Sequence record: MN850566.1
From: Escherichia phage garuso
Direction: 5' to 3' (one strand)
Length of the DNA: 64,000 nt
The notes below the pieces were generated by a model. The model was not told where the DNA came from, ran no database searches, and worked only from the letters and a program-made list of their open reading frames with translations. Both the position numbers and the translations under genes were made by a program. The first letter of the stretch is position 1; each line of letters opens with the position of its first letter. Positions 3,410 to 43,313 of this stretch are shown piece after piece.

Positions 3410-3739
3410 TTAGTCTGCCAACCTTAAATTGAAATTAACACCAAATTTTTCACATACTTCCAACATATACTCAAGTGAAACATTCCCAGTGAGGTGGATT
3501 ATGTTGGATACACGAGCTTGAGAGATACCACAAATTTTAGCAACTTGCTCTTGAGAAAGACCTCTGGATTTAATCTCTCTCTTAAAACGATGTGCAACGA
3601 AGTCTCTCATTTCGTCTACATCCATTGGACAAATATAACTCTCCATTTCAGCCTCTCTATCAGCCTCCCAATCATCTTGTGGGGCATAAGGGTCAAAAAC
3701 CTCATTCATCTTTCTTCTTCCGTTTGCGTGAAGTGTCAA
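3410..3739 (-). CDS. putative HTH DNA-binding protein
   Basis: 109 aa; C-terminal LSQEQVAKICGISQARVSNI resembles XRE/Cro-type helix-turn-helix. Confidence 0.5.
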   Translation of the reverse strand: MTLHANGRRKMNEVFDPYAPQDDWEADREAEMESYICPMDVDEMRDFVAHRFKREIKSRGLSQEQVAKICGISQARVSNIIHLTGNVSLEYMLEVCEKFGVNFNLRLAD

Positions 3740-9604: not shown

Positions 9605-9915
9605 TGGTCAATACACTCGCAAGGTGTACCAGTTCTCTTATGAACTTCTCCGCATTTCTACGGAGTGTCGGACTATATCACGTAGTAATAATACTACCGT
9701 TGCACTTGGGAATGGTCATTAGCTTACCACCCTACTCTACTCAGTTCATACATTAAGTATGCTTTTCGATAGTCTCTGAACGTTTCTCTGTTAGGAATCT
9801 CTATAGTTATGTTATTTGCTTTAGGAGTCCTAACAGAGACTTCGCTGCTGATTACCATATCTTTACAGACTTAGGCTTCCAGCAATTCACAACGTTTTAC
9901 ATGCGCCACTGACGC
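9599..9915 (-). other. group I intron interrupting the DNA polymerase gene (no internal ORF)
   Basis: Minus strand carries R element GTTCAGAGACTA (plus 9770-9781) and S element GATATAGTCC (plus 9670-9679) in correct order; intervening sequence has stops in all frames; exact splice sites not resolved. Confidence 0.65.
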
Positions 9916-12054
9916 ATAGATACCATTCTTAGCCTTCTTACGTCCTTTGCTAATCTCATGAAGAAGATTCTCATCCTGAGTAGCTCGACAAGTCAAGATG
10001 TCCTGCTCATCATTCAAGTTAAAGTAAATACTATTCAGTGTATGTGCATCAGTCCCTGAATAGACAACGTACAGGTCATTCTCAGAGTCATAGTGAAGGT
10101 ACTTATCAATCTCTGGGTTGAGATACTCATCGAAGTGTTTGCAGTAATAGCGTCCATCTTCTTGACGAGTAAACTCAATCTCTTCTTTACCTTGCGTTAC
10201 CGCTTTGGTGAACTCTTTATCACCCATAAAGTTACAAAGGAGAACTAGCTGGGCTGAGTTCATATCAACGGAGACTACGTTGGTTCCCTCTTCGCAAATC
10301 CACACCTCCCTCATAGGCGCTCCATAGACAGCAGCACCAGACGGTACGTTTACAATACCATATTGTGTCATACGTCCAGTTGAAGTGCCAAACACCATTG
10401 CACCAGCACTAAGGCGACCATCAGGACGAATCTGGTTCAACCAACCTTTTTCATCATCCTTTGAGTTCTCAATAGTTCTGCGTCGGTGCATCAAAGTATA
10501 GTACTTAGCAATCTTCTGTCCAAGCTCACCTTCAATCGTATCATAAGATGATTCAGTAAGTTTTGGTGAAGTACGGATTAAGCAAGGTTCAAGCAAATCT
10601 GTGTATTTCTTCACAGACCAGTTATGCTCGATGTACTGTACACCTTCATGTTCAACATAACTCAAACCACACCGCTCAACCATTTCCTGCCACTTAGGAT
10701 GCTTTGTAATCATCTTTTTATTGTCTTTGAAACGACAAACTTTGATAGGGCGACCATCTGAGTCTTTCTTGTAATTCCAGTCATCTGGAATCCAACCAAC
10801 TGATTTCAAGTAGTCTTTAACAACTGCTACCTGAGTCATACGAGAAACTTCAAACTCAATTGGTGTATATGGTGCATCAATCAAACCTGTGTAGCGACTT
10901 GACTCAAGTTCAAAGTGATTGACAACGTGACTGTTATAGTACTTCACAGTCTTGACTGTTTTTACTGGTTTCCAGTCTTTGCATTTTTTGCCAATCTTTG
11001 CATTCAACTCGTTGCAGATTGCACGAGCATCCTTCATCGCTACAAAACCCTCTTTGTACTCTTCACCAGTTACAGAGTTGGTTGGTGTATAGCAATTCCT
11101 TTTTTCAATGTTAAAAATCTTTGTAGTTGGCTTACCAAATGGTTTGATTTCATAAGTCTGCATCTCACCATTACGTACCTGCTGACGATACTTTGTCTTA
11201 GGGTACTTGGTAATTCTCTTCAGTCCATCTGCATGACCAAATGTTTCAACATACTCATTCCAAGCTTTTGCAAACTCTTCTCCAGTCACTTTACCTTTGG
11301 TCTTAATAGTTGGAGGTAGATGTGGTTCAACCTCTGAAGCAAGCTCATTAGTCAACTTGTCAAGTTCCTTTACATGGAACTCCATAAGCTCCTTATCAGC
11401 TTTCCAACCATTGATAGCTTGCTGGCTCATCCAGAAAGATGTCTCTTTAGCTCGCATGTAAGTCTCATAAGTGTCTATACCACACTTCTTAAGCTTGAGA
11501 TACTCGTTATCAAGTGCCCGTTTAGTTTTGGCATTAATACGGATATCTTCTACAACACGAGTGAAGATTTCTGCATTCCACACACCCCAATGTTCAATCT
11601 CTGGTTTACGGACACCGACACGAGCACCCCATGCAGCCAAACCATGAGCACCTTTATAACCCTTTGGGGTTGGCCTATCCATCCACTGAACACGAGACTG
11701 GATAAGAGAATCCTGAAAGAAATTACTCCACGGCTTACATTTTGGATTATCAAAGTTCCATAAATCAGGCGCAATGTGATTGAAAACCCACCAGTCATAG
11801 CCGAGACCATTATGGATGCAAAGACGTTTTGCCTTTAACGCAAATTCAACACCTTCACGTAAGCCGCCCTTGATGTACTTAGTGTACTTGTGACCGAGGA
11901 TAGGTTCATCTGTAAAGACCCATACAGGTGGCTCTTCATCATCAGATTTATAGTCTGCGAAAGCCATTACGTGCACTTTAGTGAACTCAAGGAGTAAACC
12001 ATCAGTTTCTGTATCACCAACCAAATGTAAGTTTTTAAAATCTACGTTTTCCAT
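9916..12054 (-). CDS. DNA polymerase (family A), 5' exon with 3'-5' exonuclease domain
   Basis: Exo I motif DTETDGL; motif A region DMNSAQL; ends in motif B ...RKKAKNGIY; start set at Met with GAGGGAG SD (ORF track 9871-12084). Confidence 0.8.
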
Positions 12055-12109
12055 TTTTACTCCCTCTAAAATCATTAACCTCATACATTACTGCAAAAAA
12101 TTATAAAAA

Positions 12110-12145
12110 GCAAGTTGACAATGCACTTGACAAGGTGTTAATCTT
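12110..12145 (+). promoter_or_regulatory. candidate promoter with tandem TTGACA boxes
   Basis: AGTTGACAATGCACTTGACAAGGTGTTAATC; near-identical block at 57650-57680; divergent intergenic region. Confidence 0.35.
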
Positions 12146-12311
12146 TGCGAAGTGGGTTTTTACTTAAAAGGTTACTTAACAGTTTAACTATACAGATACT
12201 TTAAAACTCTTAAAAGATTATTTAATAGCTTTTAAAAAGCTTTAAAGTATAACGTATAGAATACGTTAAGATAAAAGATTAAAACTTAATAGTTACTTAA
12301 AAGAGGCTTAC

Positions 12312-12734
12312 ATGCAGAAAATGTTTGTTCACCCAGACATAGCTGACTTTGTTAGAGCTTTGCAGAAGTTGGAAGAACTTGACATTGCTGCTCAACGGGA
12401 ATATGCTCACCATCACAGGAGAATGGTTGATATACAACATGAAATAGAGTTATCTGAAAACTATGAAGATGACTTAAAATGCTCTGTGTTTGAGCATATG
12501 AAAGATGTTGCTACAGCGAGACGTAAAGCTAAAGACACAGTTGCTTTACTAGACTCTCTTAAAAAGAGGTTGCAAAGTGGTACAGACCTGTGTAATCTAG
12601 CGTCACTGATTAACGATGTTGAAACTTCTTGGGATAGGCACTATTATCCACGTTCTGAAAAGACACTTGACTTTTCTTCATCCGAAAACTTAAAATGTTC
12701 TAGAAAGAAACTTAACCAACTGAGAGAGAAATAA
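12312..12734 (+). CDS. hypothetical protein
   Basis: 140 aa ORF, first gene of plus block. Confidence 0.5.
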   Translation: MQKMFVHPDIADFVRALQKLEELDIAAQREYAHHHRRMVDIQHEIELSENYEDDLKCSVFEHMKDVATARRKAKDTVALLDSLKKRLQSGTDLCNLASLINDVETSWDRHYYPRSEKTLDFSSSENLKCSRKKLNQLREK

Positions 12735-12735
12735 T

Positions 12736-13536
12736 ATGAATATCGATGTAGAAAAGATGCTTGAAGAAAAAGGTATTGACGAAGCATTTTTAATCAATGC
12801 CGTAGAAAGCATGGCTATGATTCTTCGTGGGAACAACTACACAGAACAGTTTATGCCTTCAAGCTATAACTTGCCTGAAGACAAGTCTGATAATGGTGCT
12901 TTTGCAGAACAGGTTAACATGATGTTGACAGACACTACACTTGCTTTAGCATCTATAGTCGTAGGTGTTGATGCTCTTGCAGAGTTCATTTTTAAGGAGA
13001 TGCAGAAAAATGACTATATCTCCCTTAACTCTGAAGAAAAGGACTTATTACTGTCATTAGGTAATAATGAGTTAATTTCCATGATAATTTCATCAACAAG
13101 TGCTGTTATGGCTGCTCTTGAGAAGCGAATGGGAGAGAAGCTGTCACGATATGAAAAACTTGATTGGGGGGTAGAAGAACTAAACCCACGAATCCAAGAA
13201 ATTATCCAGCAAACCAAAGATTCTTTGGAAGAAGCTGTTGAAAATGACTCTGTAGCTGATATAGAACCACTTCAGGTGAAAGTTGCACTGATGATTCCAG
13301 CTATCTCTACGATGATGAATATCGTTGCACTAATCCAACTTTCACAGATGATGGGTGTAAGTATTGAGTTCATTGAGGAGATGACTGGTGGCGTTAGTAT
13401 GCAAGCCATCAATGATGTTTTGGTGAACATTGGTGCTTCAATCATTGAAGAAAAACTACGCATTAACTTCGGTGATGATTTTGTGAAGCAAATCTCAGCT
13501 ATGGCTGAAAAAGAGTATGCTGACCAACTGCACTAA
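12736..13536 (+). CDS. hypothetical protein
   Basis: 266 aa acidic ORF. Confidence 0.5.
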   Translation: MNIDVEKMLEEKGIDEAFLINAVESMAMILRGNNYTEQFMPSSYNLPEDKSDNGAFAEQVNMMLTDTTLALASIVVGVDALAEFIFKEMQKNDYISLNSEEKDLLLSLGNNELISMIISSTSAVMAALEKRMGEKLSRYEKLDWGVEELNPRIQEIIQQTKDSLEEAVENDSVADIEPLQVKVALMIPAISTMMNIVALIQLSQMMGVSIEFIEEMTGGVSMQAINDVLVNIGASIIEEKLRINFGDDFVKQISAMAEKEYADQLH

Positions 13537-14349: not shown

Positions 14350-14550
14350 ATGAAGATGAGAGTAAAAGACAATTTTAAAGTTATTGACCACCGTTTAGTG
14401 GAACTCTCATCTCTTTCCAATGAGGTAATGATTGAACGTCTTAAGAGAGTTGAATCACGAAGGAAAGAGATTGCAGATGAAATTCATGAACTGGACAAGA
14501 TTGAAAATGGATTGAAGGCAGAACTACAACGAAGAGGTGCTAATGTCTAA
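14350..14550 (+). CDS. hypothetical protein
   Basis: 66 aa coiled-coil-like ORF. Confidence 0.4.
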   Translation: MKMRVKDNFKVIDHRLVELSSLSNEVMIERLKRVESRRKEIADEIHELDKIENGLKAELQRRGANV

Positions 14551-16528
14551 AGGTCGTAAATTGAAAGAGGCTGGTCAGTTTATTGGTCATTGTGCATGTC
14601 CACGTTGTGGTTCATCAGATGCTGGTTCAATCTATCATCATGACGATGATTCTTATTCGATGACTTGCTTTAGCTGTAACAAAGGTTTCCCAGAGTGGGA
14701 TTTTGATAAAGGACAAATCGTGAGCACTTATTCTACTGGTTCAGATAACAAAAACCGTACTTTCCGTGGAATGGATTTAGACGATGTAAAAGAAAACCTA
14801 GAAGCAATGGACTTGAAAGACAGGAAGATTCCTGCAAAAGTCCTTGAACGCTTAGGTATCAAGGTTGACATTGACAGTGACGGTGAAATTGATGCGCATT
14901 TCTATCCAACTTACAAACGTAATGAAGATGGTAAGCTAGAGCATGTTGGTTACCGTGTTCGTCACCGTTACCCAGAAGACCATCCAAAAGAGCACCTACG
15001 TGGTAAGCTAAAAGACTTTTCTGGTGGTGTTGGAGACATTAAAGGTGAACTGGCAATGTTCGGTTCATGGATTGCTCCAGAAGGTGGTAACCGTCTATTC
15101 ATCTGGGAAGGTGAGATGGAATGTGCGACAGCAATCTATATGACTTCTCTTGCGATTAAAGATAAGTCTCGTCGTAAGAATTACTGTCACGTATCTGTAC
15201 CATCAGGTGCAAACATTAAGTCTATCAAAGACAACTATCAGTACATCACATCATTTGATGAGATTTACTTGTGCTTTGATAACGATGAAGCAGGTGCTAA
15301 AGCCACTAAAGAGGCTGCTGGCATTCTCCCTATCGAGAAGGTTCGTTTATTCCAGTATCCAGAGGGTGTAAAAGACCTTAACGAATGGTGGACAAAGTTC
15401 TATAAAGAGAAAGATACAGTTCTTGAAGGGTTTAAGCAGCGTATATACAATGCACCCCGTTACTGCCCTGCTGGTATCAAGAACTTCGCAGATGGTTTTG
15501 AGGCAATGAAGAATCGTGGTCAGATTCCATTGATTCCTTTCCCAGAATCATTCGGAGATTTGAACAGACTGACTTATGGCGGTTATGGTTTAGGTGAGAT
15601 TACAACTCTGGCAGCACCCTCTTCAGTGGGTAAATCTGCATACACTCGTGAAATGATTTACACAGCTTGGAAAGAAACCGATTACAATATTGGTGTAATT
15701 CCTGTAGAAGATACCTATGAAGAGTTGATGGAGATGCTTTGTGCAATCCACCTTAGCAAGCAGATTTCTGAGATTCCTTATGACGAACGCGATTGGGATG
15801 AATTGAAGGAAGCACACGCAGAACTGTCTAAAGGTCGTCGTATCCACATCGTAGACCATCAAGGGGCAATTGACCAAGATAACTTGCTGGAGTTTGTTGA
15901 CTATCTTGTTAATAGCTTAGACTGTAAGATTATTATTCTTGACCCTATTACGTTGGCTCTGTCACGTTCAGATACGGATGAAGAGGAAGTTTTGTCTGAG
16001 CTATTGCGTCGTTGCAAACGCTACCAGTATGCACAAGTGAACGTCTGTCACGTTCGTAAGAGTGCAGGTGGTCAGAAGGCTAACTCTGAAGGTGGGGATA
16101 TCTCTGAAGAGGATATTAAAGGCTCTGGTGCGTATTTCCAGATTTCTATGAACAACATTCTGTTAATGCGTAACAAGGTTGACCCAGACCCTGTTAAGAA
16201 AAACTTGACAAAAATCAAGCTAACTAAATGTCGTCGTCACGGTAAGTCAACGGGTATTGCTGGTCATACTTGGTACAATCCAGATACAGGACGCCTCATC
16301 AAAGCATCTGGTTGCGGAGTTGACATTGATGGTGCAGCAGAAAATATTCGCCAACAGTTTGGTATTGGTGAAGCTGAAGACCATTACGATGACTCTTTGC
16401 CACATTATGAGGATGAAGTGTTTGACCGTGAGACTGGTGAAGTCTATACTGAAGAGCAGCGCCAAAGCTCAACGATTCCACCTGTATTAAGTGAGGATGC
16501 AGATGACTGCCCATTCGAAACTGAGTGA
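14537..16528 (+). CDS. bifunctional DNA primase-helicase (T7 gp4-like)
   Basis: N-terminal Cys4 zinc ribbon (CPRCG...CFSCN), TOPRIM-like FDNDEAG, C-terminal Walker A APSSVGKSA. Confidence 0.8.
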   Translation: MLMSKGRKLKEAGQFIGHCACPRCGSSDAGSIYHHDDDSYSMTCFSCNKGFPEWDFDKGQIVSTYSTGSDNKNRTFRGMDLDDVKENLEAMDLKDRKIPAKVLERLGIKVDIDSDGEIDAHFYPTYKRNEDGKLEHVGYRVRHRYPEDHPKEHLRGKLKDFSGGVGDIKGELAMFGSWIAPEGGNRLFIWEGEMECATAIYMTSLAIKDKSRRKNYCHVSVPSGANIKSIKDNYQYITSFDEIYLCFDNDEAGAKATKEAAGILPIEKVRLFQYPEGVKDLNEWWTKFYKEKDTVLEGFKQRIYNAPRYCPAGIKNFADGFEAMKNRGQIPLIPFPESFGDLNRLTYGGYGLGEITTLAAPSSVGKSAYTREMIYTAWKETDYNIGVIPVEDTYEELMEMLCAIHLSKQISEIPYDERDWDELKEAHAELSKGRRIHIVDHQGAIDQDNLLEFVDYLVNSLDCKIIILDPITLALSRSDTDEEEVLSELLRRCKRYQYAQVNVCHVRKSAGGQKANSEGGDISEEDIKGSGAYFQISMNNILLMRNKVDPDPVKKNLTKIKLTKCRRHGKSTGIAGHTWYNPDTGRLIKASGCGVDIDGAAENIRQQFGIGEAEDHYDDSLPHYEDEVFDRETGEVYTEEQRQSSTIPPVLSEDADDCPFETE

Positions 16529-17002: not shown

Positions 17003-17860
17003 ATGTCTAAAGTTGTTAAAATGAAAGCTCCGGTAGAGAAGTACAACGGTACTGAACGTCAAACTCTGCGTTACCTGCTGAAAGATGTCTGGTTTTATTA
17101 CCTGAACACTTCACCACGTCCGGGGAAAGGTAAGTCTATTGATAAGAAATTCCCAGGCAAAGACTGTAACTACAGCGTATCAATTCTGGCAGAAGACGGT
17201 AACAAACTCTTTAAAGAGTTTACTAAGTCTAAGAAGAACCCAGAAGGTTGGGATAAAGTTACTACTGAAGCAGTTGATGCAGATGACTTCGAAGAGAAGT
17301 TTGGTTGTAAACCACCTTTTGAAGCAGACACTTACTACATCTTGAAAGTAAGTCGTGCAGCAGCTTATAAAGATGGTGCTGTATGGACAGCTAAACAGTC
17401 ATTCCCTGTAATGCTGATTGAAGAAGTAAATGGTAAGCGTGTAGCTGTTAAGCAGCCGATGAAGAAAATCAAAGCTCAAGCATCTGATAAACATGAAGAT
17501 GACAAGAACTATGATGTAATTCATCCAGATATCGCAGTTGGTAATGGTTCTTTTGGTAGTGTGATTCTTTCTACTCACTTCTACACTTTTGAGAACAATG
17601 TTCTGACAAAACCTATTCAGGAACAGTTTATCATTGATACTCTTGTACCTTACACTGGTGGTAACGGTGCTAATGGTGAACCTGAACTTGATGAAGATGA
17701 ACTGGCTATGCTTGGTCTTGATGGTGTTGAAGATAACGGTGAAATCACTGAAGAAGACGCAACAGACCATAAACCTTCGAATGCTTCTGATGATGGTGAT
17801 GATGAAGATTTGCCAGACCCAGATGACGAAGAAGATGAAGACTTCGATACAGAAGACTAA
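17003..17860 (+). CDS. putative single-stranded DNA-binding protein (gp2.5-like)
   Basis: 285 aa with strongly acidic C-terminal tail (DDGDDEDLPDPDDEEDEDFDTED) as in T7 gp2.5; position within replication module. Confidence 0.5.
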   Translation: MSKVVKMKAPVEKYNGTERQTLRYLLKDVWFYYLNTSPRPGKGKSIDKKFPGKDCNYSVSILAEDGNKLFKEFTKSKKNPEGWDKVTTEAVDADDFEEKFGCKPPFEADTYYILKVSRAAAYKDGAVWTAKQSFPVMLIEEVNGKRVAVKQPMKKIKAQASDKHEDDKNYDVIHPDIAVGNGSFGSVILSTHFYTFENNVLTKPIQEQFIIDTLVPYTGGNGANGEPELDEDELAMLGLDGVEDNGEITEEDATDHKPSNASDDGDDEDLPDPDDEEDEDFDTED

Positions 17861-41537: not shown

Positions 41538-42323
41538 ATGGGTATTGTAAAAATCATCAATGGTGATATCTTTGCTGCATTTGATAAAGGTAAGTTTGAC
41601 ATCATTGGTCATGGTTGTAACTGTATGAACCTAATGGGTGCAGGTATCGCTGATAAGATTTCTAAACTTTACCCAAAAGCATATGAGACCGATACAGAAG
41701 TTTATCTATATGCAGGCGGTATAGGCCACAAACCCTGTGAAAATTTACTAGGTAACTTCTCTGTAGCACGTTTAAAACAAGGCCGTATAGCTAACCTTTA
41801 CACTCAGCTTAAGACTGGTAAAGATGCCCGATACAGTGCTTTAGAGTCATCTTTGAAACAGCTTAACAGATACTGTGAAGTCAATCAGTTGAAGAAAGTC
41901 GGGTTACCTATGATTGGTGCAGGTATCGGTGGGCTAGACGCTCAAGCCGTCACAGTTATCATTAATCAGGTGATGAAGAGTGTAGATGTGTATCTGTATG
42001 TCTATGAAGGAGAGATGTACCACAAGTTACGCTCAGGTTGGAAGAACTACTGTGAACCAGAATACTTTGCAGGTGTAGTAACGTTCACAGACAATACAGT
42101 TACCCTCTTCAGACGAAGAAAAGGTAAGATACATCAAAGTAACCCTCCGGTTGAAAAGATGTCTCTAAGTAACGCTCTAGTTACCCACCTGTCGAAGAGC
42201 AATCACAGGATTGCAGTAACATTTGGTAGTGATGCAGACACTTATATCTATGCAAGAACTGATGAGGGTATCGAGACAGTTTTCTCTTCGCCAGAAGTTA
42301 CCTTCTTAGACGCAAAGAACTAA
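41538..42323 (+). CDS. macro-domain protein (putative ADP-ribose binding/hydrolase)
   Basis: N-terminal IVKIINGDIFAAFDKGKFDIIGHGCNCMNLMGAGIADKI and PMIGAGIGGLD fit macro-domain glycine-rich motifs. Confidence 0.55.
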   Translation: MGIVKIINGDIFAAFDKGKFDIIGHGCNCMNLMGAGIADKISKLYPKAYETDTEVYLYAGGIGHKPCENLLGNFSVARLKQGRIANLYTQLKTGKDARYSALESSLKQLNRYCEVNQLKKVGLPMIGAGIGGLDAQAVTVIINQVMKSVDVYLYVYEGEMYHKLRSGWKNYCEPEYFAGVVTFTDNTVTLFRRRKGKIHQSNPPVEKMSLSNALVTHLSKSNHRIAVTFGSDADTYIYARTDEGIETVFSSPEVTFLDAKN

Positions 42324-42389
42324 GAAACTCTGTAGAGTATTCACAATAAACTAAGCCTTTCTTATCTGGTAAATTTTTCAGGTAAGGAG

Positions 42390-42600
42390 GGCTTTTTCAT
42401 TTCAGAATTGTGCAGGTATATTTCTATAGAGAAATCTGTAGAGGAAATTTTGAACTCCAAAGAGAAAATTCATTTTCAAACTGTGCAGGTAATCTCCAAA
42501 GGGTTTTTTCATTTTCAAAACGTGCAGAGAAAAATCAGGTCGGGCAAGAAAAATCATTTTAGAATTGTGCAGGTAGGTGGGTGCAGGTGGGGATGTCGCC
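42390..42600 (+). repeat. array of four or five direct repeats TTTCATTTTCA(A/G)AA(C/T)TGTGCAGGTA (iteron-like)
   Basis: Copies near 42395, 42466, 42504, 42553 (last followed by GGTGGGTGCAGGTGG) in a 490 bp ORF-free region. Confidence 0.55.
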
Positions 42601-42752
42601 ATTTCTCACAAGGCTACCACATCTGGAAATAAAAGTCAACAGAAAAATTTGTAGCGGATTGAAAAATAATTCTTGATTGTAGTTCTGTTTTGTGGTAGTC
42701 GCGCGCACCCGTTTCATTACAATCTTTGCAAAAAATATTTTTAAAATTCCTA

Positions 42753-42781
42753 TTGACTCTTTGAGTATGGTTATCTAATAT
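42753..42781 (+). promoter_or_regulatory. sigma70-like promoter TTGACT-17-TAATAT
   Basis: Consensus-like -35/-10 upstream of first cassette gene. Confidence 0.5.
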
Positions 42782-42831
42782 TTGCATCAGACGGGCAATC
42801 AAGCCCACTTCCTAAACTGGAGATTCAAAAA

Positions 42832-43020
42832 ATGGCATCAAGAAAGATTAAAGTTGGCGATGAGATTAACATCAAGCACGAACACTCTTACAAAATGCTA
42901 ACTATACGCTCTTATAAGGTTTATCAGGTGGAAGCTATCCACAAAGATAACACTTTTTCCTTAAAAGGTTATAGCGAACGTTTCCCTGCTGAACTCTTTG
43001 AGAAATGGAGCGCGAAATAA
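42832..43020 (+). CDS. small early protein (cassette gene 1)
   Basis: Preceded by conserved CCTAAACTGGAGATTCAAAAAATG leader. Confidence 0.5.
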   Translation: MASRKIKVGDEINIKHEHSYKMLTIRSYKVYQVEAIHKDNTFSLKGYSERFPAELFEKWSAK

Positions 43021-43228: not shown

Positions 43229-43313
43229 AGTACTTTACATGGGGCTTAAAAGTCTGTAGAGTAAGCCCCAGATAAAGAGCTTTACCAACAACCTTAAACT
43301 AGGAGATTCAAAA
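43229..43313 (+). repeat. promoter/stem-loop cassette type A, copy 1
   Basis: TTTACA-17-TAGAGT around hairpin GGGGCTTA/TAAGCCCC, then AGATAAAGAGCTTTACC...TAAACTAGGAGATTCAAAAATG. Confidence 0.6.

Follow-up and report, generated by a model that had tools for sequence, protein, structure and literature searches.

A conserved array of iteron-like direct repeats in Felix O1-like phages and its possible functions

Iteron-type origins such as R6K gamma, F oriS, P1 oriR and lambda ori are built from asymmetric sites of about 20 bp repeated in the same orientation at a unique non-coding locus, together with A+T-rich DNA and a promoter. Asymmetric head-to-tail sites made of two boxes one helical turn apart are recognised by monomeric or two-domain DNA-binding proteins, such as the two-domain winged-helix monomers of iteron-binding Rep proteins. 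Here, we describe an array of direct repeats with a similar layout in Escherichia phage garuso (MN850566.1), of which a stretch of 64,000 nucleotides (hereafter the window) was analysed. Unlike the plasmid and phage iteron origins, the repeats of the array and of its counterparts in related phages are spaced at 37-75 bp instead of about 22 bp; the array lacks DnaA boxes and occurs with an apparently T7-type replisome, and neither its surroundings nor the rest of the window yielded a gene resembling Rep, O or RepA.

T4 oriE provides a parallel in a lytic myovirus, as it consists of a cluster of direct repeats that is syntenically conserved and resembles a plasmid origin, its iterons being functionally unproven (PMC3016281). 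The oriE repeats differ in being 12 nt long and evenly spaced, share no sequence similarity with the array, and adjoin a switch in transcription direction, which the array does not. The origin of the PLE satellite likewise carries repeats in a long non-coding region, where an iteron-RepA origin with a RepA_N initiator is driven by the replisome of phage ICP1, composed of T7 polymerase and helicase-primase families (PMC7145576). The PLE system thus shows that an initiator bound to iterons can recruit such a replisome. The site of the array is asymmetric, in contrast with the PLE iterons, which are semi-palindromic and centred on a poly-A tract, and the RepA gene of PLE is known. Regulatory regions offer a second kind of analogue: the phi29 p4/p6 complex and the Fis sites upstream of rRNA P1 promoters are phased A-tract protein sites that precede UP-element or bent-DNA promoters. 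In those systems, binding is established and the sites are at most about 150 bp from the start sites, whereas the array begins over 200 bp upstream and bears no Fis consensus.

Classical typing phages, Felix O1 and its relatives have also found wide use in biocontrol and therapy. No account of iterons or of a replication origin in Ounavirinae turned up in a search of the literature. The direct repeats listed in the Felix O1 genome paper are those of promoter-hairpin cassettes and do not include this array (PMC3185647), and the text of the Bas63 knockout study gives no data on the intergenic region that would contain it. In GenBank records, the array is either unannotated or overlaid with inconsistent small open reading frames (ORFs). 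The array is a well-conserved new example of a familiar type of element. Furthermore, it represents the most conserved non-coding DNA of its locus and offers a concrete, unique cis element for testing.

Organization and conservation of the repeat array

The array lies inside a 508-bp gap (42324-42831) that separates a gene encoding a macro-domain protein from the first small early 'cassette' gene. A repeat search conducted without a preset pattern revealed a five-member family of 28 nt at 42388, 42414, 42461, 42500 and 42545, as well as a three-member family of 34 nt. Matches to the 22-nt core TCATTTTCAAANTGTGCAGGTA were found at four positions of the + strand (Table 1), against 0.00 expected by chance in 100 dinucleotide shuffles, and the rest of the 64-kb window contained no further match. 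All four copies run in the same direction, conform to the pattern W5-TCATTTT-N6-GTGCA-GGTA, and start 73, 39 and 45 bp apart. Together with a half copy and a weak fifth member, they confirmed the iteron-like direct repeats reported in a first-pass annotation of the window. That annotation also described the last copy as extended into GTGCAGGTAGGTGGGTGCAGGTGG; this sequence is present at 42567-42591, but its extension holds only the GTGCAGGT half of the motif. Comparison of alleles indicated that the half copy is confined to a G-rich allele of the block that follows copy 4.

To assess the uniqueness of the locus, a weight matrix was run over the complete 86,106-bp genome of Escherichia phage warpig, the nearest relative across the intergenic region (98.8%). 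The four array sites scored 30-33 bits and the next best site 15.8 bits, a gap indicating one cis-locus per genome and not a dispersed promoter or operator motif. The latter possibility was rejected, as neither the window nor the whole warpig genome holds more copies.

The array is shared, on the same strand and at the same syntenic place, by Felixounavirus, Suspvirus, Mooglevirus, Kolesnikvirus and one divergent 88-kb viral contig (L032), with 3-5 copies across relatives. Separate repeat finding recovered the family de novo in every lineage. Felixounavirus, Suspvirus and Mooglevirus carry four copies spaced at 73-75, 39-41 and 45 bp. Phages BPS17L1 and Si3 and similar contigs carry three, exactly one unit being gone (copy 2 in BPS17L1 and Si3). 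Kolesnikvirus phages of Erwinia and Cronobacter carry four copies and a decayed one, spaced at 37, 37 and 39 bp, with a GTGCATAG variant, and L032 has 4-5 copies, behind which come an A+T-rich stretch of about 150 bp with TTAACA-type repeats and then a promoter. The array follows the macro-domain gene in all array-bearing lineages, and L032 likewise has a macro-domain ORF before it. BLAST comparison with Erwinia phages aligned the array and no other part of the 508-bp region. Hence, comparison with related phages, which the first-pass annotation had proposed as a check, showed that the repeats are conserved in at least four genera. The repeats in the A+T-rich stretch of L032 (600-760, read on the - strand) form a second family, with four copies of about 18 nt resembling TTTTAACAACTCATTAAC.

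A two-copy pattern searched over 2.9 million viral contigs gave 31 matches. Thirty of them lie in array-bearing contigs, whose lengths range from about 50 to 94 kb and are mostly 84-94 kb; the remaining one, in contig L024, proved to be an unrelated two-copy duplication. A scan of bacterial genomes returned 23 unrelated matches in metagenome-assembled genomes and none in Enterobacterales, and a search of plasmids for the array gave no matches. A metagenome scan with a looser pattern yielded mostly noise, its genuine matches being again Felixounavirus-like. Weak extra matches in one locus (L047) were discarded, since they fell in a terminator tail and in coding sequence.

Between Felixounavirus and Mooglevirus, the four repeat cores retain 87, 87, 77 and 86% identity, against 69, 64 and 43% for the spacers between them and 65, 73 and 49% for codon positions 1, 2 and 3 of the macro gene. 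The cores are therefore constrained more strongly than the adjacent protein, and this comparison of sequences indicates that they are under purifying selection at the DNA level. The same figures weigh against a neutral tandem duplication of terminator-proximal sequence devoid of function. Such an origin would account for a copy number of 3-5, for the clean deletion of one unit in BPS17L1 and Si3 and for the varying spacing, but the cores surpass second codon positions of the macro gene in conservation while the spacers decay, and the array is kept in at least four genera. This explanation is already disfavoured, and we regard it as very improbable.

Across 79 distinct copies, the motif was G-W5-TCATTTT-MRAWTY-GTGCA-GG/TA. 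Because the TCATTTT and GTGCA boxes belonged to the pattern by which these copies were selected, their invariance is partly circular; the flanks did not belong to it. At positions -4 to -1 before TCATTTT, A and T occur about equally, and G or C never. Since an A tract is equivalent to a T tract on duplex DNA but not on RNA, the tract would be read by the shape of the duplex. The two boxes lie about 12 bp apart, approximately one helical turn, without dyad symmetry, and the sites are arranged head-to-tail.

No reading frame accounts for this conservation. The first-pass annotation called the region ORF-free over 490 bp. In the region, which measures 508 bp, mechanical ORFs of 50-74 aa do exist, but none is kept between genomes: the open segments differ between relatives in strand, frame and extent, similarity is found in all frames and on both strands, and the distances between repeats (37, 39, 41, 45 and 73-75 bp) do not consistently keep to multiples of three. 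A small gene over the repeats, as annotated on either strand in several records, was therefore rejected.

Functions considered for the array

The repeats are most likely docking sites for a sequence-specific DNA-binding protein, judging by their sequence features. The first-pass annotation had suggested that a replication initiator or a transcription regulator binds such repeats, a proposal supported in part. In its generic form this reading fits a single locus with one direction, a bipartite site of about 22 bp, selection at the DNA level and a neighbourhood that is A+T-rich and contains a strong promoter; no initiator gene was recognised, and a second region, at 12.1-12.3 kb, is at least an equal candidate for an origin. 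The protein would probably read the TCATTTT and GTGCA boxes plus the A/T tract, the latter by its shape, and the head-to-tail sites would let several molecules of it assemble at one unique locus of the genome.

By analogy with iteron systems, we tentatively propose that the array is iteron-type and forms the core of a replication origin, a speculative function that ranks first among those considered here but is short of probable. Once bound, the array would open the duplex with the help of the easily melted A+T-rich DNA nearby and of transcription that starts at the strong early promoter, about 180 bp further on; a T7-type replisome made of a gp4-like primase-helicase, a gp2.5-like single-strand DNA-binding protein (SSB) and a PolA-type polymerase would then load at the array. 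The anatomy fits that of an origin, with unique non-coding direct repeats followed by A+T-rich DNA and then by a strong promoter, and the A+T-rich extension of L032 fits as well. With four same-orientation copies at a unique locus, the array has the three or more direct repeats of a 17-22-bp site that are looked for in an iteron-type origin. When stability was scored in steps of 40 bp, the segment at 42716-42760 fell in the least stable 0.5%, but it lies 140 bp from copy 4 and doubles as an UP element, and DNA that is less stable still occurs at 12.2 kb and 50 kb.

The replisome invoked here is suggested by two genes that lie side by side. The gp4-like primase-helicase (14537-16528) contains Toprim and DnaB_C domains according to Pfam. 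Beside it, a 285-aa ORF (17003-17860, +) without a Pfam family ends in a long acidic C-terminal tail (...DDEEDEDFDTED). Such a tail is a hallmark of T7 gp2.5-type SSBs, and by its sequence this ORF looks like a protein of that type and not like a Rep protein.

Several observations weigh against an origin at the array. A search with Pfam and PHROGs of 30 ORFs from its neighbourhood and from the replication module recognised no Rep-like initiator, although unannotated proteins could still fill this role. The only recognisable regulator among these 30 ORFs, an HTH_3 protein (3410-3739, -), was found in 260 phage records but was not detected by tblastn in any of the 28 array-bearing Erwinia phages. 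The genes that flank the array encode the macro-domain protein and small ORFs without Pfam matches, and a 266-aa ORF at 12736 belongs to a shallow homologue family, apparently all-helical. T7-type replisomes classically start from transcripts and not from iterons. The array is located off the cumulative GC-skew minimum (about 12 kb, the maximum being at about 47-48 kb), inside a block of co-oriented genes and not at a point of divergent transcription; a leftward fork would meet 30 kb of + strand genes head-on. Its repeats are unevenly spaced (37-75 bp) and farther apart than those of classical iteron origins, neither DnaA boxes (TTWTNCACA) nor IHF sites (WATCAANNNNTTR) were found in 42324-42831, and one copy has been lost naturally in BPS17L1 and Si3.

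Furthermore, the region at 12.1-12.3 kb is a serious rival. The divergent intergenic region at 12085-12312, between the DNA polymerase gene (-) and the replication operon of the + strand, is extremely A+T-rich and contains tandem TTGACA elements and a 27-nt imperfect palindrome. At 12.1-12.3 kb, the GC-skew minimum coincides with divergent promoters and with the 100 bp of lowest stability in the window, and early transcription begins there according to the Felix O1 paper (PMC3185647). This region is at least as good an origin candidate as the array, because gene orientation, GC skew and DNA stability all point there. The stronger proposal, that the array is the primary origin of Ounavirinae and that an initiator unlike Rep, O or DnaA recruits the T7-type replisome to it, is in our view doubtful; if correct, it would represent a type of origin not described for lytic enterobacterial myoviruses. 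Should the array function as an origin at all, it would lead to the identification of a new initiator, aid the construction of replicating phage-derived vectors and indicate which sites to keep in genome engineering.

A regulatory array is nearly as likely as an origin core, although we consider it rather unlikely when taken by itself. According to this explanation, a phage early or middle protein, or an enterobacterial nucleoid protein, would bind the repeats and switch the adjacent promoters during the early-to-middle transition, and the array would open up the study of that switch. Conserved promoter elements are located 110-180 bp downstream of the array, at a distance that is similar in Mooglevirus and Kolesnikvirus, and spacing of about 40 bp suits cooperative wrapping. 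The near-invariance of the motif across genera whose proteins have strongly diverged would suit a conserved host partner; yet no Fis, CRP, IHF or DnaA consensus was matched, Chi was likewise missing from 42324-42831, and the array is absent from host bacterial genomes and from plasmids. Temporal control of transcription in these phages is called unknown in the Felix O1 genome paper (PMC3185647), which leaves room for such a switch, and Felixounavirus, Suspvirus and Mooglevirus encode the HTH_3 regulator. However, this regulator was not detected in the 28 array-bearing Erwinia phages, and no cognate regulator that co-occurs with the array was found. The sites are rather far from the promoter for direct occlusion: copy 4, the nearest, ends 98 bp ahead of a -35-like element and 178 bp ahead of the -35 that belongs to the strong promoter, with a sequence-variable block in between. 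Finally, there is a single array per genome while at least eight similar downstream cassette leaders and promoters have none, so that the array cannot be the general early switch.

The constant position of the array just past the terminator of the macro-gene operon could point to an architectural or barrier element, in which an array of bound protein insulates the cassettes from read-through or replication forks, or anchors the DNA. The uniform polarity of all sites and the location of the array where the conserved replication block gives way to the plastic cassette region would agree with this role. We find it improbable nonetheless, as a strong intrinsic terminator is already in place, the repeats bear no likeness to the Ter consensus when compared by eye, and no such element is known from lytic phages of this kind.

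Repeats acting at the RNA level, as sites for RNA binding or processing, for example a protein sponge, appear still more improbable; they would be transcribed through leakage past the terminator or from a promoter-like pattern at copy 1. Copy 1 and the TATATT that follows it form a weak sigma-70-like pattern (TTTTCA-17-TATATT), the general form of which, TTTTCA-17-TAnnnT, overlaps copy 1, and in several relatives copy 1 is followed by hexamers resembling TAnnnT. Runs of (ARN)n-like and U-rich sequence occur in some spacers, and in most relatives a C-rich, G-poor tract comes behind the array. In contrast, Kolesnikvirus has no such promoter-like pattern, the array sits behind a strong terminator, and A and T tracts are freely interchanged at the same position of the motif. 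Folding of the array region was no better than that of shuffles on either strand (z = -0.69 for + and -0.07 for -), and Rfam gave no match above chance over it, so that a structured RNA or known RNA family was rejected.

A genome terminus or packaging (pac) site is the least credible of the functions considered. In T7-like phages, non-coding repeat arrays flank the termini, and the records of KhF1 and TH10 end inside the region; yet three record ends in or near it among about 288 records correspond to chance level. The direct terminal repeats of UAB_Phi87 have been mapped by Bal31 digestion and run-off sequencing (PMC4837284), and the 542-bp sequence repeated exactly at the two ends of its record maps to 63,628-64,000+ in our coordinates, 21 kb downstream of the array. 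This match indicates that the window runs into the physical terminus region, just past the tRNA cluster.

Other identities were tried and rejected. As individual sigma-70 promoters or terminators, only copy 1 looked weakly promoter-like and only the upstream hairpin scored as a terminator; the sigma-E, sigma-54 and sigma-32 consensus sequences, judged by eye only, did not fit the repeats. A CRISPR array was excluded by spacers of 11-23 nt (one of 51 nt) that are themselves partly conserved, instead of unique spacers of ~32 nt, and by the lack of an Rfam match.

Features of the intergenic region and of the window

Matches to the intergenic region and its flanks were found in 252 phage records at 80-99% identity, nearly all of them Felixounavirus; on this sequence evidence, the window is a Felixounavirus, i.e. 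a Felix O1-like myovirus of the subfamily Ounavirinae. The features of the intergenic region are listed in Table 1.

Table 1. Coordinates of the repeats and neighbouring features in the window
Feature	Coordinates	Strand	Remarks
Macro-domain gene ('putative phosphatase')	41538..42323	+	Pfam Macro, E=1.5e-7
Intrinsic terminator of macro-gene operon	42353..42394	+	17-pair stem with G-U pairs, then T run (terminator scan)
Copy 1	42393..42420	+	Core 42397-42418 TCATTTCAGAATTGTGCAGGTA, 3 mismatches; T5 tract in front
Possible decayed copy (uncertain)	42414..42441	+	64% identical to copy 1; in the 73-bp gap between copies 1 and 2
Copy 2	42466..42493	+	Core 42470-42491, perfect consensus (0 mismatches); AAAAT in front
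Copy 3	42505..42532	+	Core 42509-42530, 3 mismatches; T6 in front
Copy 4	42550..42577	+	Core 42554-42575, 2 mismatches; A5 in front
Variable block after copy 4	42576..42639		G-rich/mixed in the window; from alignment of relatives
Half copy GTGCAGGTGGG	42581..42591	+	Without TCATTTT box
Conserved non-coding block AAAAGTCAAcAGAAAAATTTGTAGCGGATTGAAAAATAATTCTTGATT...TGGTAGTCG	42640..42701	+	80% identity, Felixounavirus vs Mooglevirus
UP-element-like AAAAAATATTTTTAAAA	42730-46	+	Before the early promoter
Strong early promoter	42753-42781	+	-35 TTGACT (42753-58), 17-bp spacer, -10 TAATAT (42776-81)
5' leader	42782..42834	+	Small hairpin GGGC..GCCC 42793-42806, Shine-Dalgarno leader CCTAAACTGGAGATTCAAAAA, ATG 42832

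The first-pass annotation had missed the terminator, whose T run continues into copy 1 so that the two directly abut. A rho-independent terminator is annotated at this site in the records of ASO1A, XTG1 and wV8. A short element, AAnTCTGTAGAG(T), occurs three times: after the macro stop codon (42326-42338), between copies 1 and 2 (42432-42443), and at 43250-43262, where it forms the -10 region of a cassette promoter. The wV8 form of the first occurrence, CTGTATAAT, is a perfect -10.

Most relatives carry a C/T-rich tract as the variable block (CCAACCCCTCTCCCCCTCTTACTCCCCCTCTCCCC; CCCCTCTCCCCC...), and a G-rich or mixed allele with the added half repeat is found in the window, in warpig and in several viral contigs. 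An inversion switch was rejected, as the two alleles are diverged and not inverted. The next block, delimited as 42640-42701 or, more widely, as 42640-42709, is about as conserved as the repeat cores. Its sequence suggests a promoter, with a -35-like TTGATT (42673-78), an upstream A-rich tract and a poor -10 (TAGTCG); in relatives, TTGAYT is kept as the -35-like element and the -10 is poor throughout (TAGTCG, TATTCG, TAGTTG). A short alternating purine-pyrimidine tract follows, in which the sequence varies while the alternation is kept.

The TTGACT-17-TAATAT promoter that the first-pass annotation had placed after an AT-rich stretch is present behind AAAAAATATTTTTAAAA. It is conserved in the alignment of relatives and annotated as a promoter in the ASO1A record as well, and the promoter/UP segment (42730-42781) constitutes the least stable 40-60 bp of the intergenic region. 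The leader CCTAAACTGGAGATTCWAAAATG (CCTAAACTGGAGATTC(A/T)AAAATG) occurs eight times before small cassette genes, between 42811 and 48706. A hairpin-overlapped promoter, TTTACA-17-TAGAGT, was also observed at 43234-43269 within GGGGCTTA...TAAGCCCC, an arrangement that resembles the promoter-stem-loop cassettes of T4-type phages. The 57-bp direct repeats of Felix O1 (PMC3185647) are its counterpart.

The gene map was taken from the annotation of warpig. A minus-strand block encodes thymidylate synthase, DHFR, the HTH regulator, ligase and a split DNA polymerase. The plus-strand block that follows (12.7-42.3 kb, 30 kb) encodes the primase-helicase, the SSB-like ORF, an exonuclease, ribonucleotide reductases, NAD-salvage enzymes, rIIA/rIIB and lysis genes, and ends with the macro-domain protein, which the records of relatives label either as a phosphatase or as a macro-domain protein.

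Other features of the window were recorded. A group I intron (Rfam RF00028, 63 bits) is located at 9648-9923 (-), between the two DNA polymerase frames and beside an HNH endonuclease ORF. ARAGORN predicted 18 tRNA genes between 59.8 and 63.4 kb, and a tRNA-like Rfam match barely over threshold (31.7 bits) at 61979-62057 (+) received no ARAGORN call. Finally, GATC, the site of Dam, MboI, DpnII and Sau3AI, occurs 0 times in the 64 kb, against 189 +/- 13 expected from dinucleotide-preserving shuffles; this total avoidance presumably reflects counter-selection by restriction or by processes related to Dam, MutH or SeqA.

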